Shown here: piece after piece, positions 18,813 to 34,715 of the stretch
Position numbering within the stretch: the stretch's first letter is position 1
Layout: every line of letters begins with the position of its first letter
Origin: a phage
DNA: 64,000 bases
Sequence record: OZ413489.1
Reading direction: 5' to 3' (one strand)
Made by a program: the position numbers and the translations under genes
Notes under the pieces: model-generated
Told to the model about the DNA's origin: nothing
Databases searched by the model: none
The model's input: only the letters and a program-made list of their open reading frames with translations

Positions 18813-19529
18813 ATGGCTACGCTTTATAGTGATATATTGATGGACCCACAGACAGGCGATTTGGCGATAGACAAAGGTCTTGAGTTGATAGATTCAAACC
18901 AGGTAAGTCTGCGCCAGCGCTTGTGGATGAGGTTTAATACGTGGAAGGGGAGCTGGTACTTTGACGAACTGTTTGGCTTCCCTTATATGGACTTTCTCAG
19001 TAAGAAGGTCATGAAGACTGTTCTTGATAACAAGATCATGGAAGTGGCAAGACAAGAGCCGGATGTGCTAAACATCATAAACTTCCAGTCTACCATGGAC
19101 CGAAGATCGAGAACATACCAAGCGTTCTTTGAGGTTGTTACCAAAGAGAACGAGATTGTAAGGCTGGCTTTCGTAGGTCTTGATCAGTTCACCTACCCAC
19201 AACCTGATTCTGGGACAACCTCTCTCTGTGATGATGAGGGTTGGATTAAGTGGGCTAATAAACTGTACTATCTGATCAACTTCAGATTGCCTAGAACAGG
19301 AGATGCCACATGGTGGAACCAGTATGCTGGCCCTGAGATGGAAAATCCGATCCCTGTAGGCTCTCTGTTGACTCAGGATAAAGATCTGCTGATGACTGAG
19401 GCAGAACAAACCATTAACCGCAATACCTGGACGCTTGCTCCAGATGAGCGCGAATACTCTGGTGTTATTGCTACCTCCAATGATGAGGCTATTGCCAACC
19501 AGTCTGGTCGTGCTATTGATGTTAACTAA
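18813..19529 (+). CDS. baseplate wedge protein (W/gp25-like, tentative)
   Basis: 238 aa; GAGGG RBS; N-terminal pattern resembling gp25-like wedge proteins (recollection). Confidence 0.35.
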   Translation: MATLYSDILMDPQTGDLAIDKGLELIDSNQVSLRQRLWMRFNTWKGSWYFDELFGFPYMDFLSKKVMKTVLDNKIMEVARQEPDVLNIINFQSTMDRRSRTYQAFFEVVTKENEIVRLAFVGLDQFTYPQPDSGTTSLCDDEGWIKWANKLYYLINFRLPRTGDATWWNQYAGPEMENPIPVGSLLTQDKDLLMTEAEQTINRNTWTLAPDEREYSGVIATSNDEAIANQSGRAIDVN

Positions 19530-19538
19530 GGAGAAATC

Positions 19539-20207
19539 ATGGCTGTAGCTTATCCTACAATACCAATTCCAGATCTTGAAGATGCAGAAACAGTCCTGAG
19601 TGATGACTTCTTGGTTGTCAACCAGACTGATGGGACAAGAAAGGCTAAGATTGATGATGTTGTCAACGATCTCAGCATTACTAAAATAGTCTATTTCACA
19701 GAGGGTGGTTATCTTAAGAGCAAGAAGGACTTTGCTTATGATCCAGAAACTAAGCGCTACTACACGTGGAACGGGGATTATCCTAAAATAATCCTCCCAG
19801 ACTCCACTGTAGAGGGTGCTGGGGGTGTGTCTGCAAATGCCTGGTCTGTTTTTGGTGAGCTTGCTGCAACTTCTTCTGGCAGAATAGTTGATTACGGATC
19901 TATCGGTGGTCAGCTTGATATGGATCTTGAAGTTGCGGATACCTTTAAGGTTCGACTAACTTCAAATACCACAATCTCTTTTGAAAATCAAACAGAAGGT
20001 CTTGAAGGGGTGGCGAGAACTATAACCGTATGCATTACTCAGACCTCTGGCGGCAACAAAGTCTATTGGCCTGGTAATGTTAAATGGTCCTACGGAAGAG
20101 ATCCTATCCTAACATTTACAGCTGGTGCAACAGACATTTTCAAGTTGGAAACCTACGACAACGGGTTAACTTGGTACGGGGCACTGATTATCGCAGGAGC
20201 TATCTAA
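19539..20207 (+). CDS. tail fibre N-terminal anchor-like protein
   Basis: 222 aa; N-terminus (DDFLVVNQTDGTRKAKIDDVV) is paralogous to the N-terminus of the 1479-aa fibre (DDYLVVQQPDLTRRVKIGDVV). Confidence 0.4.
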   Translation: MAVAYPTIPIPDLEDAETVLSDDFLVVNQTDGTRKAKIDDVVNDLSITKIVYFTEGGYLKSKKDFAYDPETKRYYTWNGDYPKIILPDSTVEGAGGVSANAWSVFGELAATSSGRIVDYGSIGGQLDMDLEVADTFKVRLTSNTTISFENQTEGLEGVARTITVCITQTSGGNKVYWPGNVKWSYGRDPILTFTAGATDIFKLETYDNGLTWYGALIIAGAI

Positions 20208-20208
20208 G

Positions 20209-22806
20209 ATGCGTATTCAACATAACATTGATAACGTATTTCAGATGATTGAGGGGCACAGGAAGTGCCTCGATAACAACACAGGTATTACCAACACCCC
20301 TACACAAAATAAGCTAGTAAACCCTGATGGTCTTATAGCTGCAGGGTGGGCAGGTAATAAGATAAATAATGATTGGGCAATGCATGAGTCCCAAGCTGTG
20401 TTGATTCTGGGATACATTGAAGCATACAGGGCATCGAAAAGCGATTTCTATCTGGGTAGGGCAAAAGATGCTTGGGAAGCTTACAATAGCCATCTTCTGG
20501 GTGCATATGCAGTAGAAAGTAAAATGCAAAGATTGTCCCACTACCCCCTATCCACAGATGGGGTTCCATCACATGGTGGGTTTAAAGATGTGGTGGTGTC
20601 TTTTACCAACGGTAGAGGAAAAATCCCAGCTGGATCTCCGACATGGGGAGAATACCTTGACAAGGCATTCCAAGCGTATAACGGTGTGTTAGGAAGAAAC
20701 ACTGTAGACTCTGATGTTTACGGTGGCACAGATGCTAACCCAGATTGGACAACATCCGGATTAAGTTGGTGGGTTGAGTGGTACATAGCATGGGATGGTA
20801 ACCGCTATTGGGCTAACGGTAGCATAGCCGACAGTGGTCATACGTCTGTAGAGTTCGGCACAATCCAATTACAAGATAAGGGTGTTACAGGCAGCCACAA
20901 GGTGACCTATTGTGTAAGATTACCTCAAGAGCAGGGCGGATCGGTGATACCTGCAGGATCCCCTGTAATTGTAAATCCTATAAACGTGGTTGCAGATAAT
21001 CAGGCCCCAGAGTTGGACGGGGAAGAAATGTGGTGTGACGCTTGTTATCAACTCTACACCTTGACAGGTGAGGAAAAGTATTACACCGCGTTTAAACAGT
21101 CTTACAACAAATTGCTTAATTTCAGTGATATAAACGCCTACGACAAACTGTTTAGGAAGACCACGTTGATTAAGGCACCGTTTACAGATGGTACTTGCCT
21201 TGTTGCAGGAACAGTTCCTGCCATGAGCAGGGACAGTGACGGGTATATCAATTTTAGAATGAACGCACGCCAGCCTTGCGAAATAATTCAAAAAGGGACT
21301 ACATACAAAATAGGCAGAGATGCTGAAATTGTTATGAATTTCGGAGGAGAAGGGGTTCTGTTCCAGCCACATTTCATCCTTAATGATGGCAACAATAACA
21401 AAAAACAGTACAGGATAGGGGTTCCTTTTGGAGGGGCAGAGGTAACAGAAATAGTTGCCAAGGTTACTGATTTCGTAGAGGTAGTTGGTAAAGACGGTAA
21501 TCCGTATCTCTTACCTAAAGAGGAAAACATTGTCGTAAGCGGTGGCGCTAGTGTTAGTATGCAGTATGATACCGACATTTACAACCACTCTGACAACTTC
21601 ACCCGTTGTAATATAGCAAGAGGTAAAGTAACTTTCAATTTTGGGAGAGAGATTTCTTTAAACTCAGTAACTTATCGATCAGATGATGAGATGGTAAGGG
21701 TCAAATTTCTTGACAAAGATAGGTGGTTATGGTATGCTGATCTATATGCCACTAATGGACAATGGATAACAGAAACTCTTACTCTAGGAGATTTCAAACT
21801 AGATCCGACACAACCTCATCACACCGAAGAAGAGATTAAACCTTTCTTTGCTAATCCTAAGGGGCTCACCTCTGTAGATTTCAGCCTAAGCGACAGGCAG
21901 ATAGGTAATGGCTTGTTTGATCTGTACTGCGTAAACACGCTGCCGCAGTTCTATATTGCAGATAGGGATGCTTATCTAATATGGTTTAGCGTATGGATGG
22001 CAAGCAAGACAGAATCAACCGCTAAGGTTGGTGATTGCTATGTCAGAAACTACAAGCAAGGTGCATACAGGCACACACCAGGTGTGTTCCCTGCCGGAAA
22101 GGTGATAGATAAGGAAAACTATCTCTTAGAGGAAAAGCCAAATTGGCCCTACCCTGGCATGCAATACCCAGCAGTATACTGCATGGGTGCAGAAAACATA
22201 GATCGCCATAGATTGTCAAATACAATAGGCTTTCTGTATGACGCTCAAGTCTGGTATAACAATACATTTAAGACAGAGGGTCCAGTTGCCTCACGTTATG
22301 TATGGCAGAGAGGTAATGAAGGGTTGACTGGTTGGTGGGAGATGGTAGATAACTCTAAGCTCCAGTCAAGATCTTTTGTTGCTGCGTGCCGCACAATATA
22401 TGAGCTCAAGAAACATAAAGAACCTGTTGATGAAAGACTGTTCCTGTTCTGCCAGAAATGGGCATGGTTCCTCAACAGATTCCAGTCATCTCATTCAGGA
22501 AATCTACCTACAGACTTTAACACCTCTGGGGGATATTCTTATCAGGACAGAGGAGACAGGATGTGGGTGGTAGGTGAATGGCTTGCAGGCTGCTGCTGGC
22601 TAGGTCTGTGCGGGTATTCAGAGACAATACCTCAAATAGACATTGTTGTAGAAGCCTGTATGAAGCTACTGCAAAAGCACCACTTCATCAATGGGGATAA
22701 TGTTTTAAACGGCTGCTGGGCAGTTTCTGATCCGGTGGGCTATCACTCTGGCGAAATCCTTCGCGGTCTGGGCCTTTATGCTCAATACCGTGGATTGTAC
22801 CTTTAA
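20209..22806 (+). CDS. large tail-associated protein, possible glycan-degrading enzyme
   Basis: 865 aa; Trp/Tyr-rich with enzyme-like composition; sits right after the fibre-anchor-like gene; function inferred only. Confidence 0.3.
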   Translation: MRIQHNIDNVFQMIEGHRKCLDNNTGITNTPTQNKLVNPDGLIAAGWAGNKINNDWAMHESQAVLILGYIEAYRASKSDFYLGRAKDAWEAYNSHLLGAYAVESKMQRLSHYPLSTDGVPSHGGFKDVVVSFTNGRGKIPAGSPTWGEYLDKAFQAYNGVLGRNTVDSDVYGGTDANPDWTTSGLSWWVEWYIAWDGNRYWANGSIADSGHTSVEFGTIQLQDKGVTGSHKVTYCVRLPQEQGGSVIPAGSPVIVNPINVVADNQAPELDGEEMWCDACYQLYTLTGEEKYYTAFKQSYNKLLNFSDINAYDKLFRKTTLIKAPFTDGTCLVAGTVPAMSRDSDGYINFRMNARQPCEIIQKGTTYKIGRDAEIVMNFGGEGVLFQPHFILNDGNNNKKQYRIGVPFGGAEVTEIVAKVTDFVEVVGKDGNPYLLPKEENIVVSGGASVSMQYDTDIYNHSDNFTRCNIARGKVTFNFGREISLNSVTYRSDDEMVRVKFLDKDRWLWYADLYATNGQWITETLTLGDFKLDPTQPHHTEEEIKPFFANPKGLTSVDFSLSDRQIGNGLFDLYCVNTLPQFYIADRDAYLIWFSVWMASKTESTAKVGDCYVRNYKQGAYRHTPGVFPAGKVIDKENYLLEEKPNWPYPGMQYPAVYCMGAENIDRHRLSNTIGFLYDAQVWYNNTFKTEGPVASRYVWQRGNEGLTGWWEMVDNSKLQSRSFVAACRTIYELKKHKEPVDERLFLFCQKWAWFLNRFQSSHSGNLPTDFNTSGGYSYQDRGDRMWVVGEWLAGCCWLGLCGYSETIPQIDIVVEACMKLLQKHHFINGDNVLNGCWAVSDPVGYHSGEILRGLGLYAQYRGLYL

Positions 22807-22810
22807 CATA

Positions 22811-22830
22811 GGGGGCTGTTTGCCCCCTTT
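22811..22830 (+). terminator. weak terminator-like hairpin
   Basis: GGGGGC-TGTT-TGCCCCC followed by only TTT. Confidence 0.3.
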
Positions 22831-22841
22831 CAGGAGAAAGA

Positions 22842-25800
22842 ATGGCTGATATTAAAGTTGTCAGAATTGAATCTCTTCCTGCCACTACCGCAGTGACAGA
22901 GGATGATTACCTGGTTGTTCAACAACCAGACCTGACCCGTCGTGTAAAAATTGGCGATGTTGTCCATGTGGATGGGACTGTTTCTCATGTAATCTCCTTT
23001 AAGGAAGGTGGTAAGTTAAACGGCCCAATGGATTTTGCCTACTTCGAAGAGGAAGACCTCTACCTGCGTTGGAAAGGCGAATTTCCACACACTGTTCCTG
23101 CACTATCTTCACCGTACGCTGATGGTGGGATTACTGACGCTGCATGGATGGTATATACAGATCCGTCCTTAAGGGAGGAGCTGGAATCTACCATTGGCGC
23201 ATCTATGATCATGACAGCCGAAGGGCAGTCTGTCCAGGATGTAATGGATGTTACTGTTCAGACAGCTAACGATGCTAAAGCACTTGCACAGCGTGTAGAT
23301 TTTGGTACGGTGCACACTGTAGGTGATGTTATTCACCTTGATAACTTTGTGGGTCCTGCAGTTATTGAAGAGGGAAGAACTACCAACTACCCTTCTGTAG
23401 CAGCTGGTGAAAAATTTCTGAACGGTGTGGTATCTCGTCGTGATACTACAACTGTTGATGGTATTTTCCGTGGCGCTACCACCGGAGCCATGTACACCAT
23501 TGCAGTAACCAACGGTGTAGCAACAACGAAAAGAATAGCACTTCGTGATGAATTTAAACGCCTAGAGGCAAACAACCCAACAAGAACAGTTATCCGTGCT
23601 GGAGATGATTTAAATACGGCAGGGTACTTGCAGCTTGATGCAACAGGCCGTTGGGGTATGTGGAACCAACAAACAGCTTCGTGGCAACCTCTTGCTATAG
23701 AGCAAGGCGGCACAGGGGCTAGAGATGCCGCTGGAGTCCGTATCAATATCGGTGCTTTCTATAAGCAACGTGCAGCCCTTGAGCCAAATTTCAATATCAA
23801 TAACTTGACTGGTAATCAGGATGGTGTATACTACCAGCCAATGACTGCTTATGCAACTGAGGCAAATGGTTACCCTGCAGGTTCTGGTGCTGGTCACTTG
23901 ATTGTTTGGCAGAACAATGCTAACGGAGGTACAGGTTGTCGTCAGGAATACTATCCATTCTCTAACGTAGATGTTTGGTATTTGAGAACCTATCAGGCCA
24001 ACACAAATCAGTGGACTGCATGGCAGCCGATGGTCAGACCTCGTAACGATGATACCTTTAGATCGCACATCGGTCTCGGGTCTAGAAATACCCCTACCTT
24101 CGGGCACCTTTACCTGTCTCAAAGCACTTCTGAGGTTAAGTTGCCATCAGGTATTCTCCATGGGGATAAATACGGCGCTGACGGTGCCCTTGAGCATGGG
24201 TATAGGATCTACTCTGAGGTAAGAAACGACAATAAGGCTTGGCTGACAATCCACCTGCACAAAGGTGCAAAAGGATCTGAAACTCATAAATATTTAGGTT
24301 TCCGCGAAGACGGCGTATTAGACTGCCCTAAATATATGCAGGTTGGGGATCTTACTGGTCAGCTGACAAACTGGGGACTTGGAGAATGGATTCGTAGTTC
24401 AGGAGCAGAAAGAGGCTTCTGGGGGTCCAAGAAAGCCGCCAAGATGGTTATCTGGGATGGTGGGATGGACGAATCCGGTAACGGCACTCTGGAATGGGGT
24501 GTTTATAACAACCGGAAGGCCAAGTGGGAACCTCTACCTCAAGCCGCAGGTGGCACTGGGGCTACAACTTTAGCAGATGCTCAGAATCTGTTCAAAGTTC
24601 CTGTAGCGGCAGGCGTAAAAGACTTCTTAATACTGCCAAGAACTGCAGGAATGGAAGATGGGAAATACTACCCAATCATCGTTAGAACAGATCCGTATTA
24701 CGCCCCTTCGACAGGTACAGATATTACCATAGTCACCAGGTCTTCATCTGGAAATGACCCTATGAACTGTGCCACCCTGCAGTGTCACTATAGAACTGGC
24801 GGCTGGACGGACAGGGGAGACTCTTTCTACGGGGTAGTAAATTTCTACCAGAATGAAAAAGCACTTCTTGGGATGATTGCTCCAACAAGGGGTAAACAAG
24901 AGTATGTTGCTTTCTATGTGGAGGCTCGTGCTTTCCCTGTCAGCATATACGCAAGTAGAAATGTTGTCGAAGTGTTTACCAGAGAGCAAGATTACCAGGT
25001 TGGGACTGTAACAGACAATCAGAATGGGGTTAAGTTCGTTGCACCTCTTCAGTCAGCAGATTTGAATCTTGCTATTCTTGGAGATAACAACACCAATACC
25101 AGACCTATTGTCGACTTCAAAGGTACTTCAGGGTTCTACACTGGGGGCGGCACACAGTGGCACTATATAGGCACTGCTGAACGCTATGCTGTGATGAGCA
25201 AAATGAATATGCCAAAAGTCGAGCTATGGGCAGACGGTCTTGACTATTTGTGCTACGGCAGTCCTAGAAAGGCGTTATTCTCTAATGCAGGATTCCAGTG
25301 TGCATCCGATGGGACAGAGGATCTGACTAACGGTACGTTTACCTCTAAATGCGGTAATGGTGCTGGTCTCAAAGGTCAGGCAGAGTTCAGATCTACTCCA
25401 GAGGCTGGTCAAGTTATTGTTCGTGATGTTGTAGGTTCTGCTCACAGATTCTACAACTTCAACAAAGATGGCACTTTCTCAGCTCCTGGTGGTTTTGTAT
25501 GCCACACAGGTGCAGACTGGAACAACCAGTTCGGGAATAACAACCCTTCTAAAATAATGGCTGGTAACGTCAACGGACCTGAAGGTTCCATGGTTGTAGC
25601 AGGGTTGTCGGTTGGTTTTTCTGGAAACTACGCTTTCCAGATGGCAGGTCGTTTAGACCAGCTGTATACTCGTTCCATAGAGCAGGGAAACCACAGAGCG
25701 TGGAACAAAGTTATTCAGCACCGTGGTCAAGGGTTGGGAACTAATGACCTTAACGACTACAAGGCAGATCGTGAAGGGATTTACCATCAAGAGGCAAATG

Positions 25801-27281
25801 CCAACGCCACAGCGGAAAGAAATTACCCACCAGGACAGCAGATGGCTGGTACGCTGATCGTTCTTAGAAACTCCGCTAACGAAGGAACAGGTTGTATCCA
25901 GATATATAAAATGTATCTTGGTGGAACATGGGAAAGGTATTACAATAACCTTGGCAGCGGAATGGCTTGGAGTCCTTGGAAGAGAACAAGCTTCCCAGAA
26001 AACACAACTGCTCCAGTTATGCCTGACTTGTGGTTGCCTTTAACCTCTAACCTAAAACCTGCATTGGGTGAAGGTGAGATGGTCTTCTCCAGACCTTCCA
26101 CAGCAACCTATTTCACTAAGCGGGGTGTTATGGCTGTTGCACAAGCAAACCAACCACGTTTTGAAAGAGATGGGTTGCTTATCGAGGGGCAAAGGACAAA
26201 CCTCATGCTCAACAGTGAGGACCCAAGCAAGTGGGGTGCACAGCAAGCGATTACTGTCGGTAGCACTGTAACAAATACTAACGGCACAAAAGGTGCAAGA
26301 TTTACAGTAAACACCGCATCCGGTGTAGAAACAACAGCGTTAAACCTTGCCACTGTTCCAGCCACTAGGGGTGCCGATGTGACAGGTGCTGAGAAATTCT
26401 GTACTGGGTCTATTATTGCAAGGGGAGGTAAAGCGAACCAGAGATTACGTGTAAGATTCGACATGTATGACGGATCCACCACAGTATTCCAAGGTGACGC
26501 TTATGTTAACCTGTCAACACTTGAAGTTAAAACAACAGGGGATGCAGCTGGGAGAATTAAAGTAAAAGCTGAGAGATGGCAAACAGCCGGACCTGCTTGG
26601 GTAAGGATTGCCGCTACGTTTGAGGCAGCGGCCTCTGACAAGAATATCGGTTGCCAGTTCCAGATTGCCCCGCCGGAGAGTTCTCAACATGCCGTAGGGG
26701 ATTGGGTTGACGTTGCAATACCTCAGTTTGAGTTGGGATCTTGTGAGTCCTCGTTTATCCCTACAGGGTCTTCACCTGTAACCAGGGCGGCAGATCTTTG
26801 TAAATTCCCAATGACGGATAACCTAGCGCCCAGACCATTCACTATCGCCGCTACGGTTGATGCCAACTGGAGAGGCTGGGGCAAAGCTCCTAACGCAGCC
26901 CCTAGGGTTATTGATACAGAGGGTCATCAATCCGGTGCTTTATTTATCATGGGGTTTGGCTCTGCAACAAATATTGCGGAGGACGGTTATCCATACTGTG
27001 ATATTGGAGGGTCAAACAGACGTGTTTACGAGATGGCTAAAGCCCGTAAATTGAAAATTGGGTTCAGGATAAAAGGGGACGGTAAAACATGCTCTTTTGC
27101 TAACGGATTGGTAAGTACGGAAACACAGTCTTCTTGGGAGTTCCTGGCAGGAGGCGCTTTCCTCCGCATTGGTGGTCAAACGGCGACAGGTGAAAGACAC
27201 CTATTTGGTCATATTAAGGACATAAGAGTTTGGAACTCTGCGTTGACAGATACTCAACTCATGATGGAGAGTGTTGAATAA
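22842..27281 (+). CDS. long tail fibre protein
   Basis: 1479 aa; fibre anchor-like N-terminus; two GGTGA motifs; duplicated about 60-aa module; C-terminal lectin/LamG-like segment (recollection). Confidence 0.5.
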   Translation: MADIKVVRIESLPATTAVTEDDYLVVQQPDLTRRVKIGDVVHVDGTVSHVISFKEGGKLNGPMDFAYFEEEDLYLRWKGEFPHTVPALSSPYADGGITDAAWMVYTDPSLREELESTIGASMIMTAEGQSVQDVMDVTVQTANDAKALAQRVDFGTVHTVGDVIHLDNFVGPAVIEEGRTTNYPSVAAGEKFLNGVVSRRDTTTVDGIFRGATTGAMYTIAVTNGVATTKRIALRDEFKRLEANNPTRTVIRAGDDLNTAGYLQLDATGRWGMWNQQTASWQPLAIEQGGTGARDAAGVRINIGAFYKQRAALEPNFNINNLTGNQDGVYYQPMTAYATEANGYPAGSGAGHLIVWQNNANGGTGCRQEYYPFSNVDVWYLRTYQANTNQWTAWQPMVRPRNDDTFRSHIGLGSRNTPTFGHLYLSQSTSEVKLPSGILHGDKYGADGALEHGYRIYSEVRNDNKAWLTIHLHKGAKGSETHKYLGFREDGVLDCPKYMQVGDLTGQLTNWGLGEWIRSSGAERGFWGSKKAAKMVIWDGGMDESGNGTLEWGVYNNRKAKWEPLPQAAGGTGATTLADAQNLFKVPVAAGVKDFLILPRTAGMEDGKYYPIIVRTDPYYAPSTGTDITIVTRSSSGNDPMNCATLQCHYRTGGWTDRGDSFYGVVNFYQNEKALLGMIAPTRGKQEYVAFYVEARAFPVSIYASRNVVEVFTREQDYQVGTVTDNQNGVKFVAPLQSADLNLAILGDNNTNTRPIVDFKGTSGFYTGGGTQWHYIGTAERYAVMSKMNMPKVELWADGLDYLCYGSPRKALFSNAGFQCASDGTEDLTNGTFTSKCGNGAGLKGQAEFRSTPEAGQVIVRDVVGSAHRFYNFNKDGTFSAPGGFVCHTGADWNNQFGNNNPSKIMAGNVNGPEGSMVVAGLSVGFSGNYAFQMAGRLDQLYTRSIEQGNHRAWNKVIQHRGQGLGTNDLNDYKADREGIYHQEANANATAERNYPPGQQMAGTLIVLRNSANEGTGCIQIYKMYLGGTWERYYNNLGSGMAWSPWKRTSFPENTTAPVMPDLWLPLTSNLKPALGEGEMVFSRPSTATYFTKRGVMAVAQANQPRFERDGLLIEGQRTNLMLNSEDPSKWGAQQAITVGSTVTNTNGTKGARFTVNTASGVETTALNLATVPATRGADVTGAEKFCTGSIIARGGKANQRLRVRFDMYDGSTTVFQGDAYVNLSTLEVKTTGDAAGRIKVKAERWQTAGPAWVRIAATFEAAASDKNIGCQFQIAPPESSQHAVGDWVDVAIPQFELGSCESSFIPTGSSPVTRAADLCKFPMTDNLAPRPFTIAATVDANWRGWGKAPNAAPRVIDTEGHQSGALFIMGFGSATNIAEDGYPYCDIGGSNRRVYEMAKARKLKIGFRIKGDGKTCSFANGLVSTETQSSWEFLAGGAFLRIGGQTATGERHLFGHIKDIRVWNSALTDTQLMMESVE

Positions 27282-27613
27282 TGAATATTTTTACCCTTGG
27301 ATTCACTGACAGGGAGGACTTTAACGGTTTCATGGATGAAATCGGCTTTTATGAGAATGAGGTGTTGCAAAACACCCTTCTTGTAGAGGTTGTCGGGTTC
27401 ATTTACACAGAGACTGGAGACACTTATGAGGCCGAAGATGAGTTTGGCAACATGGTTGTCTACCCAGTTTGCGAGAAAAGTGAATTGTTTTATGTTAACG
27501 TTCTGGCTCTAAACGGGGATGCAGAAAACATCATCTCTAAAAGCGGAAAAGTTGTAGATCCGATAAGGTTGAACATGTTCGACCCATCAGTATCCACCTT
27601 GGAAGCACTTTAA
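27281..27613 (+). CDS. small acidic protein, candidate fibre chaperone
   Basis: 110 aa; start overlaps fibre stop (TAATG). Confidence 0.3.
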   Translation: MNIFTLGFTDREDFNGFMDEIGFYENEVLQNTLLVEVVGFIYTETGDTYEAEDEFGNMVVYPVCEKSELFYVNVLALNGDAENIISKSGKVVDPIRLNMFDPSVSTLEAL

Positions 27614-27620
27614 AGTATTG

Positions 27621-27648
27621 CCCTCGCTTCGGCGGGGGTTTTTTGTTT
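27621..27648 (+). terminator. rho-independent terminator
   Basis: CCCTCGC-TTCG-GCGGGGG then TTTTTTGTTTG. Confidence 0.7.
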
Positions 27649-27711: not shown

Positions 27712-28302
27712 ATGTTTTTATGGGAAAGGCCTAGATACCTTCCAGATATTAGATTAGAGTTGCTGGCAGATATTGTCACGTTTAAAAGTCCGTTTACAGG
27801 TAAAACGCAAAAAGTAACCTATGCCACGCCTAACTGGAAAGGCACTTTGACGGTCTCCAATATCAGCGAGTCACAGTTACTAGAGCTTAAGAGCTTTGTT
27901 GATCAGGTGTATAAAGATGGGAACATCTTTCTTATTAAAACTTACGGTCACTCGGTAACAGCTAACGAGCCAATCGCCCTTGGGCCTACTGGTAACGACG
28001 ATTTTTTGAAGACTGTTGGGTGGGAGCCAAACAGAGACATAGCCAGAGCCGGGGATAAAATATCTGTCAATGATGAATTGAAAGTGGTAACAGCTCCAGT
28101 GCGTAGCGATGGTGTTGGGTCTGCTGTTATAGGCATATCTCCAAGACTTAGAAAACCTATTGCCGCAGGGGACACCATGAAGATAATAACTCAATCTCCG
28201 AAGGGTAGGTTTCATATCAGAGATATTTATAAAATTAAGCAAAAAGTCGATGCTATGCAAAAAGGTGATAATATAGTTATCAACTTCTTTGAGGATTTCT
28301 AA
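27712..28302 (+). CDS. distal tail protein (lambda M / GTA g12-like, tentative)
   Basis: 196 aa; GGAGG RBS; first of four genes ending in a J-like host specificity gene. Confidence 0.3.
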   Translation: MFLWERPRYLPDIRLELLADIVTFKSPFTGKTQKVTYATPNWKGTLTVSNISESQLLELKSFVDQVYKDGNIFLIKTYGHSVTANEPIALGPTGNDDFLKTVGWEPNRDIARAGDKISVNDELKVVTAPVRSDGVGSAVIGISPRLRKPIAAGDTMKIITQSPKGRFHIRDIYKIKQKVDAMQKGDNIVINFFEDF

Positions 28303-28303
28303 G

Positions 28304-28855
28304 ATGATCAGAGCGCCATTAGATAATTTATTTCTTGAAAAGCTGGAGCTTGATGGTGTTGAGATCTTAATTGCTGCAAAGCTGGAGCTACCGACAGGAA
28401 CTGTCAGGGTGTGCTCAGGCACTGGTGTTGTAGTAATTGAGGGGCAACATTTTATAGGGATAGGTGGATCAGCAACATTAACCGCTGTGTCTGAGAAAGA
28501 TGCCACCAACTTCGGATCTGTGGTAGCGACATTGAACGGGTTTGATCCTAAGTATGTGGGTGATCTGCTAAAGACTGAGTATTCTGGTTGTCGTGCCACG
28601 TTGTACATTACCGCTATGGAGAATGGTCTGCCTGTTACAACTAATGGCTTGTTTGACGGCCTTATAACAGATATGGCTATTCAGACAGGTGAGAATAGCG
28701 CTTTGTCCATATCCATCTCTTCCATCTTTAACAGTTGGTTAAGAGGTTTTCCTTATCGGTACACGGAGGAAAGCCACAGCTCAAGAAACGATAATGACAG
28801 ATTTTTTAAATATGTGGATCAGGTGGCGAGCCGCCCGATCATTTGGGAGGTTTAA
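28304..28855 (+). CDS. distal tail protein (lambda L / GTA g13-like, tentative)
   Basis: Track ORF 28289-28855; ATG 28304 with GAGGA RBS (183 aa); assignment by order only. Confidence 0.3.
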   Translation: MIRAPLDNLFLEKLELDGVEILIAAKLELPTGTVRVCSGTGVVVIEGQHFIGIGGSATLTAVSEKDATNFGSVVATLNGFDPKYVGDLLKTEYSGCRATLYITAMENGLPVTTNGLFDGLITDMAIQTGENSALSISISSIFNSWLRGFPYRYTEESHSSRNDNDRFFKYVDQVASRPIIWEV

Positions 28856-29280
28856 TGAGCACACACCCTCGTTTAGTGGATTGGCAAGAAAGATTGTGGA
28901 AAGTGTTTGACGAAGAGGCCACCATACCTTTTGAATGGGGATTCCACGATTGTTGCACCTTTGCAGCTAAGTGTGTTGATGCCCAATACGGAACAGATTT
29001 TCTTTCTAACTTCGAAGGAACGTATAAAACAGAGTTGGAAAGCAAAAGATGGTGCATGCTTCGTTTCAAAACCACACACCTGCCTACTATTTTTGATCTC
29101 TTTATGACTCGGCTGGATACTCCTAAACAGGTTCAGCGTGGAGATATTGTCATTTTCGAAGGTCTGAACGGGCTCACCGCTGGTGTGTTCTGGAACAACC
29201 AGATTTGGGCGAAAGGTGATAAAGGGGTCTTTATGTTCGACATGAAAGATTCTATCGTTGTTGATGTCTGGAGGTATTAA
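28855..29280 (+). CDS. NlpC/P60-like tail peptidase (tentative)
   Basis: Track ORF 28843-29280; ATG 28855 (141 aa); WGFHDCCTF and GDIVIFEG resemble phage NlpC/P60 Cys-His peptidases located before J-like genes. Confidence 0.35.
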   Translation: MSTHPRLVDWQERLWKVFDEEATIPFEWGFHDCCTFAAKCVDAQYGTDFLSNFEGTYKTELESKRWCMLRFKTTHLPTIFDLFMTRLDTPKQVQRGDIVIFEGLNGLTAGVFWNNQIWAKGDKGVFMFDMKDSIVVDVWRY

Positions 29281-32200
29281 TGCCAATTGCAATGATTGAT
29301 AACATCGTTGCTTCTGCAAGATCTTCAAGTTATGACTGGAACGCATCCAAGGCAGCTCTGGCTGACAGCCTGAACACTGTGACCACCAGAACTTTGGATA
29401 AGATTTTTGAGGGCAACAAATCTTACAGAAGTCAGCAAGATAGACAAAAGCTTCTCAGATCTTCTGCTGCACCTTGCTCTGTAGTGTATGGGAAGACACG
29501 CACATCTGGATTGCTTGCGTTTTTGGAGCAGGATAGCGACAGAACCCTCCATTGTGCTATTGTTCTTGCCAATCACCCTCTGGAAGGTATAGAAGATATA
29601 CTCATCGACGGTAATCCTATTTCCTCGTATGGGGATTTGGTATCGTGGGAGCTACATAACGACAGAAAAACATCGGATCCTTTCATGGGTACACACTGCC
29701 CATCGTGGTCACCAGACATGATAGGTAGAGGGATCAGTTGGCTACGTGCCAGCTTCAGGTTTGACCCTAACAAGTTCCCTTTTGGGTTGCCAAACGTTAC
29801 ACTCGTCAAGGTTGGTAAAAAATGCTATGATCCCCGTATCAGTAAAGAGGTGTATACCAATAACGCGGCCTTGGTGATCCTAGACTATTTAAGAACGTAC
29901 CTTAAATGTCCTGACGAAACCATCAACTGGGAGTCCTTCAAGGAGGCTGCCAACATATGCGACGAGGCGGTAAAAAACGCGGACGGAACCAGTGAGCGCC
30001 GTTACACCATTAACGGTGAGTTCGACATGGATGAGGCTCCAGCAAGTATTATGGCAGAAATGCTGAAAGCTTGTGGTGCAGATCTCAGCTATGTAGCTGG
30101 TAAGTATGGACTGCTGGTAGGTGCATACTATGGCCCGGCAACAATGACACTAAGTGAGGATTGTGTCTGCGGTGAGGTTAAGATCTATCCTGAAGCCTCA
30201 TTTGACAAAAGATCTAACACAATAACTGGCAGATTCACTAGTCCGACCAAAGGGTATTCTGAAACAGATTTTCCATCAGTGTTTGTCCCAGAGTGGATAG
30301 AGAAGGATGGAGAAAGAAAGATAATCGATATAGACTATCGCTTTGTTACCAGCCCTTATCAAGCTCAGCGTGTTTCTGCAATATTCTTAAGACGTGCCAG
30401 AGCTGGCAGGATTATTGAAGTCACCTGCAATATGCGAGGTTTTAAATTTAAGCCTGGTCGTTACGTCACAATGGATCTTCCAAGTATTGGTATAGTGGGC
30501 CAAGAAATGAGGGTTCTTGAATGGGAGTTCACCAAAAAGGGCGGTGTCAAGGTAAAACTTCGTCAAGATGCTAAAGAGTGGAATGATGCCACAGGGCAAC
30601 TTCCGGATTCCGGCGATGTAGATATTCCGATATCCCCGTCCGGTGTAGCTCAGCCGCAAAACTTCAGATACTCCGTTCTCCAAGCTGGGGAAGTAACTCA
30701 CGGTGTTTTGGCCTGGGACAACGTTGGGACTTACGCTCAAAATATTGTGCAGGTAAGAAAGAACGGAGAGATTGTTTGGACAGCACAGACAGTTGAGCAG
30801 TTTGTCAGAGTAGAAGGTTTGACAAAAGGGTCATACACAGCAACCGTGGTTGCAACATCTTATAAAGGTGGTGTATCTCCAGAAGCGTATTGTGAGTTTA
30901 ACATTCAGGCACCTGAAGCTCCGGTTTCTGTAGAGGTTAAGCAAGGATACTTTGCTATCACCTTGATTCCGCATAGTAGGGATTTAGCAAGTGTTAGCAC
31001 CCAGTATGACTTTTGGACATCCGGTATGACAAGGTTGCCCGACACCAGTGATGCAACCGTTACTTCAAACGCCACCCGTATGGGTGTTGGTTCAACTTGG
31101 ACATCTGAAGGTCTGCAGAACGATAAGGTTTATTATTGGTATATTCGAACCACAAACGCTTTTGGTAGTTCTCAGTTTGTAGAATGCGCTGCACGCTGCT
31201 ACACCTCTATTGAGGATTTGATGCCTCAGATAGATGCTGAATTTAAAAAGACAGAAACTTATAAAGAGTTGATGAGCACTTTAGATTCATCTATTGAAGA
31301 GGTTGAAAATAGGGTCACAGAACTTAACAGGTACATGGATGGTAGGGTAGATGAGGCATTCCAGCAACTTGGAGACAGAATAGGTGCGGTAGTTACAGAG
31401 ACAACTCAGAAGTTTGAGGATGTCAATGGCAATATCACAGCGCTGGATAGGAAACTTGTTGCTGCACAGAACAAGTTCACCAACGATCTGAACACTGAAA
31501 GTGGAAGATTGGCATCCCTGATTGAGACAACCAATAAAGCAACTACTGATCTTCTGAACAAAAAGACAGAGGCTTTAGATGAGAAATTGGTTGCCGCCAA
31601 AGGTGAGCTGGTAGAGCAGATAGAGGGAGTTGAGAGCGGGTATTTGGCCGGAGATAAAACTCTGGATGGTAAGATCAATACTCAGAGAACAGAACTTGAC
31701 GCAAGCATCTTGAGCACTAACCAGGCCACTGTGGATCTTTTGAACAGGACATCTGAAACTCTGGATCAAAAGATTAGTCAGACAAACGCGACGGTATCTA
31801 AAAACTATACCACCCTTGACGGCAAGATAACTACCGCAAAAACTGACCTCAACACCTTGATTGCCAATACCAACAAGGCCACCACTGACTTGTTGAATCA
31901 GAAAACATCTGCACTGTCAGAGCAGATAACTTCTGCACGTGGGGAGATTTCTACCAACAAGCAAGCGATTGATGCTTTGGATGGAAAACTGACCTCCACA
32001 AAAACAGCGCTGGATGCTACAATTTCCGATACCAATAAAGCCACTGTGGACCTTATCAACGGCACAGCGTCAGCTATTCGTCAAGAACTTGCTGTTGCTA
32101 AGCAGGAGATCATTGATGATGTTGGGGATGTGTCTGAGATCAGGGCTGCAGTAGCTACAACATCTAAGGCTGTAACCGACTTAGAGGGTAAAGTAAATGC

Positions 32201-33119
32201 TCAATGGGGCACAAAAATACAGGTAGACTCCGCAGGGAATAAATATGTTGCAGGTATTCAGTTGGGGATGGAAGGGTCTGGAGGCCAAGTTCAATCCTAC
32301 TTCATGGTTAGCGCAAACAATTTTGCGGTATACAACCCTGGCAATGGAACAGCAACCCTTGCTTTCGCAATCAAGAACAACCAAGCGTTCTTGAAAGACG
32401 CTTTTATAGAGAATGGCACGATCTCCTCTGCCAAGATTGCACAAGAAATTTCGTCAAACAACTACGATGGCAACGGGTACCATAAATACGGTTGGTATAT
32501 TAACAAGAACGGGCACGCCCAATTTATGGATGTGTGGGTGAAAGGCAACATCAACGCCAGTTCTGGTAACTTCACAGGGGCAGTTAACGCCACTAGTGGT
32601 ACCTTCCGTGGGGATGTTTATGCCAATAATGGTAGCTTTAGAGGCACCATAGATGCAACCGGAGGTACCTTCCGTGGTCGTGTAGAAGCTTCTGTTATCC
32701 GCGCTAACCAGTTCGAAGGTGCAATTGTTGCACACAGGACTTACGGAGATTGTGCTCCAGTATATAACTCCCAGCAAAGGGTTTGCCGTTGGAGGTGGAG
32801 ATACGTAGATAACGTTTCAGGTCAGGGTAAGAACGTAACATTCTTCTTTAAACTGAATGGTACTCTTGCCAGCTCCCAACTGAATGCATGGATAGCTGGT
32901 CATCAGATCCTTGCTGGCAAGAAGTATTTTAACGACAACAACGGCATGTGCGCGGTAGGGATAACAGGTCTTGGTGAACAAACTATAGACATTGTTATCG
33001 AGATTTACACACCGTGGTCAACGTCGAGCGTGACAGGTGTCACAATTTCCTGTCCTACTGTGATAGTAAGTCGTTCAAACTCTAGCTTCCAGGGACCTTG
33101 GAACGAGTCTCACGACTAA
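29280..33119 (+). CDS. host specificity / central tail fibre protein (lambda J-like)
   Basis: 1279 aa; N-terminal region resembling J-type tail proteins, FN3-like segment, four tandem coiled-coil repeats, C-terminal Gly-rich beta-helix-like repeats. Confidence 0.5.
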   Translation: MPIAMIDNIVASARSSSYDWNASKAALADSLNTVTTRTLDKIFEGNKSYRSQQDRQKLLRSSAAPCSVVYGKTRTSGLLAFLEQDSDRTLHCAIVLANHPLEGIEDILIDGNPISSYGDLVSWELHNDRKTSDPFMGTHCPSWSPDMIGRGISWLRASFRFDPNKFPFGLPNVTLVKVGKKCYDPRISKEVYTNNAALVILDYLRTYLKCPDETINWESFKEAANICDEAVKNADGTSERRYTINGEFDMDEAPASIMAEMLKACGADLSYVAGKYGLLVGAYYGPATMTLSEDCVCGEVKIYPEASFDKRSNTITGRFTSPTKGYSETDFPSVFVPEWIEKDGERKIIDIDYRFVTSPYQAQRVSAIFLRRARAGRIIEVTCNMRGFKFKPGRYVTMDLPSIGIVGQEMRVLEWEFTKKGGVKVKLRQDAKEWNDATGQLPDSGDVDIPISPSGVAQPQNFRYSVLQAGEVTHGVLAWDNVGTYAQNIVQVRKNGEIVWTAQTVEQFVRVEGLTKGSYTATVVATSYKGGVSPEAYCEFNIQAPEAPVSVEVKQGYFAITLIPHSRDLASVSTQYDFWTSGMTRLPDTSDATVTSNATRMGVGSTWTSEGLQNDKVYYWYIRTTNAFGSSQFVECAARCYTSIEDLMPQIDAEFKKTETYKELMSTLDSSIEEVENRVTELNRYMDGRVDEAFQQLGDRIGAVVTETTQKFEDVNGNITALDRKLVAAQNKFTNDLNTESGRLASLIETTNKATTDLLNKKTEALDEKLVAAKGELVEQIEGVESGYLAGDKTLDGKINTQRTELDASILSTNQATVDLLNRTSETLDQKISQTNATVSKNYTTLDGKITTAKTDLNTLIANTNKATTDLLNQKTSALSEQITSARGEISTNKQAIDALDGKLTSTKTALDATISDTNKATVDLINGTASAIRQELAVAKQEIIDDVGDVSEIRAAVATTSKAVTDLEGKVNAQWGTKIQVDSAGNKYVAGIQLGMEGSGGQVQSYFMVSANNFAVYNPGNGTATLAFAIKNNQAFLKDAFIENGTISSAKIAQEISSNNYDGNGYHKYGWYINKNGHAQFMDVWVKGNINASSGNFTGAVNATSGTFRGDVYANNGSFRGTIDATGGTFRGRVEASVIRANQFEGAIVAHRTYGDCAPVYNSQQRVCRWRWRYVDNVSGQGKNVTFFFKLNGTLASSQLNAWIAGHQILAGKKYFNDNNGMCAVGITGLGEQTIDIVIEIYTPWSTSSVTGVTISCPTVIVSRSNSSFQGPWNESHD
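31520..32100 (+). repeat. tandem 150-190-nt repeat units inside J-like gene
   Basis: Four diverged copies starting near 31530, 31716, 31869 and 32021 (ACCAATAAAGC... / TNKATxDLLN at protein level). Confidence 0.5.
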
Positions 33120-33224: not shown

Positions 33225-34715
33225 GTGGCTAAGTATGGATTGACAGAGGCTGGTTTCGTTATACCAACCCTAAATGACCTAATCGTTGAAACTAAGCAAA
33301 GCCTGATCCGTGCTTTTGGCGAAAACTTCAACGTACAGAGTAACTCCGTTGCAGATAAGCTGACCACTATCTTCAACGAGCGAGAGTATCAACTTATTCT
33401 TATGGCAGCATCTGTATACGCATCACAGACGCTGTATGGGGCAGAAGGTATTTACCTAGATGAGCTTCTTGGAAGACAGGGTATTTACCGAAGAGGCCGT
33501 TCTAAATCATCAGGTACCTGCCAGTTGACAATCAACACAACTGTGCCGTACAATATGATTTATGATTCCAAAACTTATACACTGGATAGTGGCAACTTTG
33601 TTCTTAGCAATGATGTGCAGGTGGCAGGGAATCTTATTGCCCACAGAATAAATGCTCCAGACCTAAGGATTGGTAAATACAACTTTCAAATCACCAACCA
33701 GACAGATGGAAGTATCAAAACAAAAAGTCTGGTTTTAACAGATAAGTCTCTGGACTCTTCTGATCTGCCAAGCTTTTACGGAGAGATTAAGCAGTTCATT
33801 GTCGATAATACAACCCTGTTGAACGACGATTTGATTCAGATCGATATGTTGACAGGAACGTTGTGGATAGGGTACAATTCGAATCTTGATCAAGTTGGAC
33901 TTAATAGTAGGGTAGATTTCAGAGTATCCCCGATTGTAGGGGAAAGAACTATCACACTGGATGTTATCGCTAACGAGGCTGGTGAGCTGTCAAGAGAAGC
34001 AGAAACCGTGACAACAATGTCACCTACTCCTAGTGGATTTATCAAGCTTACCAACCGAGAAAGATTCAATGAGGGCAGGGATGTTGAGAAAGACTCAGAG
34101 TATCGCTTAAGAGCTTCCAGCACAAAACAGTTAACATCTAAGGCTACCCGTCCTGCAATCCTTAGCGCTGTAAGCGAGGTGAAAGGTGTTGAGAAAGTGA
34201 GAGTGTTCTCCAACAACACCGATAAAACTGATGCTAAAGGTATACCTCCTTACAAGTTCCAAGTGGTTGTGTTTGGTGGTGCAACGGAAGACATTTGCCA
34301 AGCACTTTACCAAACTATAGCCTGTACGAACAGGACTTATGGTAATATTTTCTACGATGTCACTACATCTGATGGTCAAACTGAAAGAATTTATTACTCC
34401 AAGGCAAATACCTACCGCCTAGATGTAAGAATTACCTACTCCGGTGCCGCACTTTCCACAACCGAAAAAGATGCCATTGTAGAGGCTCTTTTGCAGGTTG
34501 TTAACGGACTGGATGTTGCAGATACGTTGTATAATATCCAATTGGTCGGCGCTGCATCTGCTGCTGTATCAATAGGCAGATTTAATAGACTGGTAATTCA
34601 AGTTAAACCAGTAGGAGCTTCTGATGAAGCTTACACTACAAACGATATTGTTGCGAACATGACCGAGGTGTTTGACCTCGACGAAAGTAATATAACTTTC
34701 CAACAAACTATTTAA
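33225..34715 (+). CDS. baseplate J-like protein
   Basis: 496 aa; GTG start with GGAGGAG RBS; N-terminus (YGLTEAGF...ADKLTTIF...ASQTLYGAEGIYLDELLGRQGIYRRGRSKSSG) matches the Baseplate_J family pattern as recalled. Confidence 0.55.
   Translation: MAKYGLTEAGFVIPTLNDLIVETKQSLIRAFGENFNVQSNSVADKLTTIFNEREYQLILMAASVYASQTLYGAEGIYLDELLGRQGIYRRGRSKSSGTCQLTINTTVPYNMIYDSKTYTLDSGNFVLSNDVQVAGNLIAHRINAPDLRIGKYNFQITNQTDGSIKTKSLVLTDKSLDSSDLPSFYGEIKQFIVDNTTLLNDDLIQIDMLTGTLWIGYNSNLDQVGLNSRVDFRVSPIVGERTITLDVIANEAGELSREAETVTTMSPTPSGFIKLTNRERFNEGRDVEKDSEYRLRASSTKQLTSKATRPAILSAVSEVKGVEKVRVFSNNTDKTDAKGIPPYKFQVVVFGGATEDICQALYQTIACTNRTYGNIFYDVTTSDGQTERIYYSKANTYRLDVRITYSGAALSTTEKDAIVEALLQVVNGLDVADTLYNIQLVGAASAAVSIGRFNRLVIQVKPVGASDEAYTTNDIVANMTEVFDLDESNITFQQTI

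Follow-up and report, generated by a model that had tools for sequence, protein, structure and literature searches.

How do two proteins of one phage baseplate, otherwise dissimilar, come to begin with the same hundred or so residues, and what does the smaller of them carry? The question is raised by a stretch of phage DNA of 64,000 nucleotides (nt; sequence record OZ413489.1, hereafter the window), which belongs to a Vequintavirus, an rV5-like E. coli phage; its bases 19000–27500 share 97.8% identity with phage APECc02 and 97.6% with the BASEL phage JeffSchatz (Bas55). Three plus-strand open reading frames (ORFs) of the baseplate/fibre block are concerned, homologues of rV5 gp43, gp42 and gp41: a protein of 222 amino acids (aa; 19539–20207, also homologous to PVP-SE1 gp50/51 and phi92 gp140), an 865-aa protein (20209–22806, also homologous to phi92 gp141) and a 1479-aa fibre (22842–27281, an allele of rV5 gp41). 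All three rV5 proteins were detected in virions by proteomics (PMC3606486). A sequence-only reading had noted that the first and third genes share an N-terminal anchor domain, proposing either two receptor-binding devices that dock to the same site or an anchor that recruits the 865-aa protein, taken to be an enzyme. Our analysis favours, at a probability of roughly 0.65, a model in which one module is used twice in the same baseplate: the 222-aa protein would serve as the adaptor on which the 865-aa protein is mounted, and the fibre would be anchored by its own copy.

A composite N-terminal module in two proteins

The N-terminal similarity withstands formal testing. BLASTP aligns residues 8–105 of the 222-aa protein with residues 7–105 of the fibre (38 of 99 identical, 38%, one gap, 71.6 bits, E = 2e-18), and the Smith–Waterman score of the N-terminal 110 residues is 175, against 27.6 ± 4.9 (maximum 61) in 2,000 shuffles (z = 30). 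This pairwise comparison had been set beforehand as the check; the peptide pairs first quoted lie within the alignment, and the first ~100 residues of the two proteins are paralogous as claimed. Reciprocal phmmer searches of a six-frame translation of the whole window recover each copy from the other (E = 6e-17 and 2e-18); the same translation, searched with phmmer and hmmsearch across all 64,000 nt, contains no third copy, and the rest of the 222-aa protein shows no similarity to the rest of the fibre in the shuffle test (z = 1.4). As nucleotide sequences the copies agree at only ~50% of positions and share no long identical stretch, which rules out a recent duplication, a recombination substrate, a repeat or an assembly artefact and identifies the paralogy as an old duplication. 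The bare similarity is not new, since the GenBank note for the PVP-SE1 fibre already reads 'similar to rV5 gp043 at N-terminus' and part of the region falls in a curated family.

The ~105 shared residues are real, but they do not form the single domain that had been supposed. They are a composite of an N-segment (aa 1–48; 19539–19682, plus strand, in the 222-aa gene) and a PF18668 Tail_spike_N domain (aa ~49–106; 19683–19856, plus strand); in the fibre the same two parts, aa 1–48 followed by PF18668 at aa ~46–105, occupy 22842–23156 on the plus strand. Against a curated gathering threshold of 25 bits, Pfam assigns PF18668 at 41 bits to the 222-aa protein (aa 51–105) and at 38.4 bits to the fibre (aa 46–103), and the fibre paralogue of PVP-SE1 scores 60.1 bits. 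PDB sequence matches of this part are Sf11 gp13, Shigella phage B2 Gp48, the CBA120 tailspike proteins (TSPs) TSP1, TSP3 and TSP4, and 4qnl (G7C gp63.1). Sf11 gp13 is the best match of both N-modules (E = 2.8e-5 for the 222-aa protein and 1.4e-10 for the fibre, whose module also matches B2 Gp48 and 4qnl). Residues 49–106 of both proteins superpose on the N-terminal regions of TSP1, TSP3, TSP4 and gp63.1, making the PF18668 part equivalent in fold to the N-terminal domain of a CBA120 TSP1-type tailspike. A P22 head-binding domain had been suggested for rV5 gp43 by HHpred (PMC3606486); similarity to the P22 tailspike N-terminal domain fold was not reproduced for the 222-aa protein.

The N-segment behaves differently. 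It matches no Pfam family, is 43% identical between the two proteins over aa 1–48, and in the AlphaFold2 (AF2) monomer of the 222-aa protein appears disordered (predicted local distance difference test, pLDDT, <50), with short strands in a low-confidence prediction. An exhaustive profile search over 1.84 billion representatives, with the module parts evaluated separately, places the whole module at the extreme N-terminus of ~20 representatives of 214–1599 aa. Taken alone, the PF18668 half is internal in hundreds of fibre and spike proteins, whereas the N-segment is found at N-termini only. It also occurs without the PF18668 half, in Phapecoctavirus gp129 and in phi92 gp140 and gp143, and in Mydovirus KNP2 it opens the gene that follows the sheath-initiator gene (the KNP2 record has a 5.6-kb run of N inside that gene, of which the start alone is readable). 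The N-module is present in just 195 phage records; after the fibre N-module comes a 'DPSLRxxL' junction motif that is common to the Seunavirus fibre paralogues. From this distribution we infer that the N-segment is the actual docking element, and the first ~48 residues are likely to be the minimal anchor. One further sequence bears on the limits of the family: a 285-aa protein of Klebsiella Mydovirus K45PH128C2 matches the N-module weakly (25–28% identity with insertions), lies among early or non-structural genes and is annotated 'putative quorum-sensing-regulated virulence factor'; it is a possible relative.

Beyond its N-module the 1479-aa fibre has a long variable distal part. It belongs to phrog_6578 'tail fiber protein', carries an NCBIfam GTA_spike_fiber ('phage head spike fiber') domain at aa 1113–1317 and has a weakly LamG-like C-terminus; in the BASEL collection its gene is one of three allelically variable fibre genes (PMC8594841). 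The fibre also contains an apparent internal repeat (aa ~257–399 and ~962–1048), both copies of which end in '...NxANxGTGC...' and match tail-fibre PHROGs.

A conserved C-terminal domain and its 865-residue neighbour

The 222-aa protein ends in a C-terminal domain modelled as a β-sandwich (aa ~116–222; 19884–20204, plus strand; AF2 pLDDT ~80) and proposed here as the dock for the 865-aa protein. The protein as a whole is nearly identical to bas55_0024 of JeffSchatz and belongs to phrog_7760 'tail fiber protein' (E = 8e-120); the 'sialidase domain' label of its BASEL annotation was not borne out, as neither in sequence nor in fold does it significantly resemble a sialidase or the carbohydrate-binding module of one. 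The C-domain matches no Pfam or NCBIfam family and has no significant PDB match. It is nevertheless 34–47% identical (E from 1e-16 to 1e-29) to the C-termini (~105 residues) of small proteins in five other phage groups, each encoded directly upstream of a gp42-like gene, and at least six PHROGs of small tail-fibre proteins align with it at their C-terminal end. Eleven residues are invariant: Q168, G171, N173, W177, W183, P189, D199, D207, G209, W212 and G214.

The 865-aa protein, a member of phrog_2871 'tail protein', starts 1 nt past the stop codon of the 222-aa gene (TAAgATG), and a six-frame search of the window finds no N-module in its ORF. The two families have almost the same distribution. 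By tblastn, 526 phage records contain the C-domain, searched alone, and 525 contain a member of the 865-aa family, the latter covering Vequintavirinae, Phapecoctavirus, Justusliebigvirus, Rosemountvirus, Erwinia phiEa21-4-like phages, jumbo phages, the T7-like Yersinia phage ISAO8 and Vibrio phages. Host by host the counts agree (C-domain/865-aa family: Salmonella 101/101, Erwinia 33/33, Campylobacter 23/23, Cronobacter 12/12, Vibrio 60/62). A small 'tail fiber protein' gene abuts the 5' end of the 865-aa family gene at every locus inspected; in Vequintavirus, Seunavirus, Phapecoctavirus, phi92, Rosemountvirus, Kolesnikvirus phiEa21-4 and ISAO8 the stop codon of the first gene and the start codon of the second adjoin or overlap, and in 157-kb Vibrio phages the tblastn match coordinates place the C-domain and the 865-aa family side by side.

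As regards the host labels, about 20 GenBank records named 'Campylobacter phage' (MG0656xx; host Campylobacter jejuni) are 96–100% identical to E. coli rV5-like phages here, and further records so labelled match Phapecoctavirus. The Campylobacter labels are probably wrong, or the isolates contaminants.

The N-termini of the small proteins, by contrast with their homologous C-domains, differ between most groups. Phapecoctavirus and phi92 adaptors have the N-segment only, that of Rosemountvirus has an unrelated N-terminus, and that of the podovirus ISAO8 begins with PF03906 Phage_T7_tail, the T7 tail-fibre N-domain. Together, co-occurrence, adjacency, variable N-termini and a conserved C-domain form the pattern typical of a modular adaptor. 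In the 865-aa family the N-terminus itself is highly conserved across morphotypes, which argues against its direct docking on such different tails.

This pattern bears on the first of the two original proposals in its plainest form, namely that both N-module proteins are independent receptor-binding devices at the same or quasi-equivalent sites, the 222-aa protein being a stubby fibre whose C-domain binds a receptor and the 865-aa protein being attached elsewhere. Such an arrangement, which would fit the shared module, leaves unexplained the near one-to-one co-occurrence and strict adjacency of C-domain and 865-aa family across unrelated tails, and gives no account of how an anchorless protein with a conserved N-terminus joins myovirus and podovirus tails alike. 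A receptor-binding tip should moreover vary, whereas more than ten residues of the C-domain are invariant between phages of very different hosts; we regard independent devices as unlikely.

The second proposal fared better, in part. Recruitment is well supported by comparative genomics, through the matching record counts, the adjacency and the variable N-termini, and on these gene comparisons it appears better supported than docking at a common site. That the recruited protein is an enzyme, as had been assumed, is not established: PDB single-sequence and profile searches gave no match for the 865-aa protein, nor did Pfam or NCBIfam, and the fold resemblance is weak and of medium confidence. 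Its AF2 model (pLDDT 66.5) consists of helical hairpins interrupted by β-rich insertions, for which Foldseek returns weak matches of low template-modelling score to GH101, GH116, glucuronyl C5-epimerase and folds like those of carbohydrate-binding modules. The ISAO8 homologue has a sub-threshold GH76 match (20.9 bits against 25.9). Enzymatic activity would be plausible on such modelling.

The pairing of an adaptor-like gene with a separately anchored fibre recurs elsewhere. In Seunavirus (PVP-SE1, 4MG and EspYZU15) the sheath initiator is followed by a cassette of a 224-aa protein, a 929-aa gp42-like protein and a 712-aa colanidase-type fibre, and both the small protein and the fibre begin with the full module. 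The order in phi92 is gp139 (sheath initiator), gp140 (157 aa), gp141 (958 aa, gp42-like), gp142 and gp143 (endosialidase). Like the window, phi92 has an adaptor composed of N-segment and C-domain (gp140), a member of the 865-aa family (gp141; the two genes overlap by 1 nt) and a receptor-binding protein (gp143) that starts with the same N-segment (39% identity to that of gp140 over 38 aa; profile E = 2.5e-9). It differs in that PF18668 is missing from both gp140 and gp143, in that the anchored receptor-binding protein is an endosialidase rather than a counterpart of the 1479-aa fibre, and in that a deacetylase fibre gene, gp142, lies between gp141 and gp143. In Erwinia phage phiEa21-4 (Felix O1-like), the adaptor gp71 resembles the 502-aa fibre gp70, encoded beside it, over the N-terminal ~160 residues (31% identity, E = 9e-15), a region that a profile of the window N-segment does not detect. 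Compared gene by gene, gp140 with gp143, gp71 with gp70 and the Seunavirus small protein with its fibre are independent repeats of one design. Certrevirus CR9, of the same genus as phiTE, is without the cassette and has a shorter sheath initiator.

Candidate docking sites on the baseplate

Where might such a module insert? Structures of other phage particles offer three precedents. In phi92, fibre I attaches atop the C-terminal domain of gp145, and fibre II meets fibre I at its base (PMC13450770), an arrangement that two trimers with one kind of anchor would be expected to give. In phiTE, the sheath initiator's C-terminal helix forms a bundle with the long fibre's N-terminus (PMC11972413). Sf11 gp13 docks through residues 4–59, with a PF18668-type domain just distal (PMC12724387).

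Counterparts of both phage baseplate partners are encoded in the window. Immediately upstream of the 222-aa gene lies a 238-aa sheath-initiator homologue (18813–19529, plus strand; phiTE sheath initiator 9mjn, E = 5e-61; it also matches phi92 gp139), which carries a C-terminal tail of ~35 aa after a '...TWWN' motif (aa ~186–238). This tail is common to Seunavirus, Mydovirus and Phapecoctavirus and is missing in the cassette-less Certrevirus CR9; among the genera compared, it occurs only where an N-segment protein is encoded directly downstream. A further 33 aa are confined to Vequintavirus. The N-segment might dock on the tail. The other candidate partner, by analogy with phi92, would be a baseplate wedge protein (33228–34712, plus strand) that in a PDB phmmer search matches 9cuy_T, the phiTE wedge 2 protein, at E = 3e-158 and phi92 gp145 at E = 3e-55. 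On the composition of the phi92 wedge PMC13450770 is itself inconsistent, the text giving one gp145 and two gp146 and a figure legend gp145-i, gp145-o and gp146; of the two, it is the legend that tallies with phiTE, in which the gp145-like wedge 2 protein is present twice.

The idea that both devices dock to one site can now be split. The adaptor/865-aa pair and the fibre do share an attachment module, but they do not compete for one exclusive site, as both were found in rV5 virions (PMC3606486), which rules such a site out; the sites may be identical, quasi-equivalent or adjacent. The two module copies are only 38–43% identical, and their halves behave differently. PF18668 groups by paralogue type, with 53–55% identity between small-protein orthologues across genera against 34–43% between paralogues within a phage, whereas the N-segments of paralogues within a phage are as similar as those of orthologues across genera (43%, and 54–60% in Seunavirus). 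These sequence patterns hint that the two N-segments co-evolve with a common partner.

Put together, the favoured model would run as follows. The ~105-residue module would serve for virion attachment, its ~48-residue N-segment most likely inserting into the baseplate periphery, at the junction of wedge and sheath initiator, and the PF18668 domain after it most likely forming a trimeric neck. The 1479-aa protein would be a conventional fibre with its own module copy. In the 222-aa protein the N-module would fix the adaptor to the baseplate, and the C-terminal β-sandwich would hold the anchorless 865-aa protein, whose gene is presumably translationally coupled to that of the adaptor; the adaptor–partner complex and the variable fibre would then emerge side by side. 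The C-domain and the 865-aa protein would constitute a portable two-gene unit, moved between very different phages while the anchor half varies.

A branched arrangement would assign the module another role. One N-module protein would sit on the baseplate and the other would dock on the first, as CBA120 TSP1 and TSP3 do on TSP2 and TSP4, with the module acting as a fibre-to-fibre connector. The CBA120 precedent shares PF18668 with the proteins described here, but the N-segment always lies at the extreme N-terminus and persists in phi92 and Phapecoctavirus without PF18668. In the stretch of the Phapecoctavirus locus examined, the adaptor has no second N-segment protein beside it, so an adaptor can dock without a partner fibre, and scans of the three proteins against Pfam and PHROG detect no branching domain of the T4 gp10 type. 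We think it quite improbable that the module is such a connector.

The twice-used anchor has consequences for phi92. In its 2026 structure, fibres I and II are without atomic models, and the assignment of fibre II is called 'a significant challenge' (PMC13450770). From gene comparison, gp140–gp141 emerges as a candidate for fibre II; gp141 was not among the authors' candidates (PMC13450770). A broader proposal, which we make tentatively and give rather less than an even chance, is that the C-domain and the 865-aa protein are an unrecognised, widely mobile 'plug-in' host-recognition cassette, present in ~525 phages (myoviruses, podoviruses and jumbo phages) with differing adaptor anchor halves, and that in rV5- and phi92-like phages it forms fibre II, held in the variable fibre's own socket through the common 48-residue N-segment.

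Several observations weigh against the adaptor model. The phi92 authors reported that the density of fibre II was not matched by predicted gp140, although gp140 was considered alone, without gp141 (PMC13450770). None of the three proteins has a matching chain in the solved baseplates of relatives (phiTE 9cuy and 9mjn, phi92 21vq), and among the retrieved proteins none combines the adaptor C-domain with the 865-aa family in a single chain. The structure models are of medium confidence (pLDDT 64.6 and 66.5), with the N-segment unstructured in the monomer; word-index searches had returned few homologues (4, 30 and 7 proteins), which makes for shallow alignments and thereby for models of this quality. 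The clustering signal of the N-segments rests on 48 columns (58 for the PF18668 half) and is statistically not firm.

Finally, adjacency and co-inheritance are equally expected of a chaperone and its client. The 222-aa protein might accordingly serve the 865-aa protein as a chaperone or scaffold during assembly, its N-terminal similarity to the fibre reflecting a common trimerisation fold only; small genes beside fibre genes are often chaperones. We consider this very improbable, because gp43 was among the proteins detected in rV5 virions (PMC3606486), the genes of fibre chaperones usually lie downstream and their products are without virion-anchor domains, and the small protein has domains recognised as binding the particle, PF18668 here and the T7 tail-fibre N-domain in ISAO8.

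Neighbouring genes, known adaptor systems and significance

Downstream, a 110-aa ORF (27281–27613; phrog_1361, function unknown) overlaps the fibre stop codon by 1 nt and could encode a fibre chaperone or a distal accessory protein. On its 3' side a terminator scan marks an intrinsic-terminator-like hairpin and T-run (27620–27639, plus strand; 8-bp stem with six GC pairs, then TTTTTTG). A second, GC-rich hairpin, between the 865-aa and fibre genes (22810–22828, GGGGGCUGUUUGCCCCC, then UUU), was rejected as a terminator for its short T-run and a z of -1.7. Between the fibre and wedge genes, this myovirus has a lambda-like tail-tip gene set (27712–33119) encoding proteins of 196 and 188 aa, a 145-aa DUF6950 protein and a 1279-aa protein; the last is the counterpart of rV5 gp37, with the Ig_J, Ig_J_second and Phage_Tail_Tip domains of the tip attachment protein J. 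The set is not at the equivalent position in Seunavirus, Phapecoctavirus, phi92 or Certrevirus.

The design belongs to the anchor/adaptor systems of receptor-binding proteins, which include the K1-5/SP6 gp37 adaptor, the Klebsiella anchor-branch systems and the branched spikes of CBA120 and G7C. A small protein with a recognised virion-binding N-domain is encoded next to a partner without an anchor of its own. The closest likeness is to podovirus adaptors (the gp37 type of K1E, K1-5 and SP6 and the KP32 type of Klebsiella; Latka et al. 2019, PMC6872550), in which a small N-terminally anchored protein mounts an adjacent anchorless enzyme or receptor-binding protein, as we propose here; the ISAO8 member of the present family even uses PF03906, as those systems do. 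The same podovirus-adaptor analogy was drawn for the L-shaped fibre I of phi92 (PMC13450770). There are three differences. The proposed partner-binding element is a ~105-residue C-terminal β-sandwich, not a gp10-like branching domain or a short docking peptide; in place of a variable depolymerase, the partner belongs to a single conserved family (phrog_2871); and the unit is found mainly on contractile tails, the pairing being known from gene comparison.

CBA120 (Ackermannviridae) TSP1–4 and G7C gp63.1/gp66 likewise have several receptor-binding proteins per virion that share N-terminal domains, with PF18668 in common. Their PF18668 domain lies ~70–160 residues into the protein, after other domains, and their tails are of Vi01 or N4 type, whereas here the domain follows a unique 48-residue segment on an rV5-type tail; the T4 gp10-like (XD) branching domains of CBA120-type complexes were not detected in the three proteins. 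In Sf11, a Shigella siphophage, the extreme N-terminus of gp13 docks on the adaptor helix of the distal tail protein and a PF18668-type domain comes next (PMC12724387), the same order as here; the Sf11 segment is helical and bundles with the tail-protein helix, and the window N-segment is not detectably homologous to it.

In the searchable literature we found no account of the C-domain/865-aa pairing across morphotypes, no recognition of the 48-residue N-segment as a constant element and no mention of the consequence for fibre assignment in phi92 and rV5. For these phages the analysis offers a testable assignment, in which rV5 gp43 and phi92 gp140 would be the adaptors for gp42 and gp141, and each pair would share one anchor with the variable fibre (gp41 and gp143). 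The ~48 residues that are likely to be the minimal anchor would be useful for grafting foreign receptor-binding proteins onto such phages. The conserved adaptor–partner unit, present in ~1% of sequenced phages, has no solved structure and no curated family.

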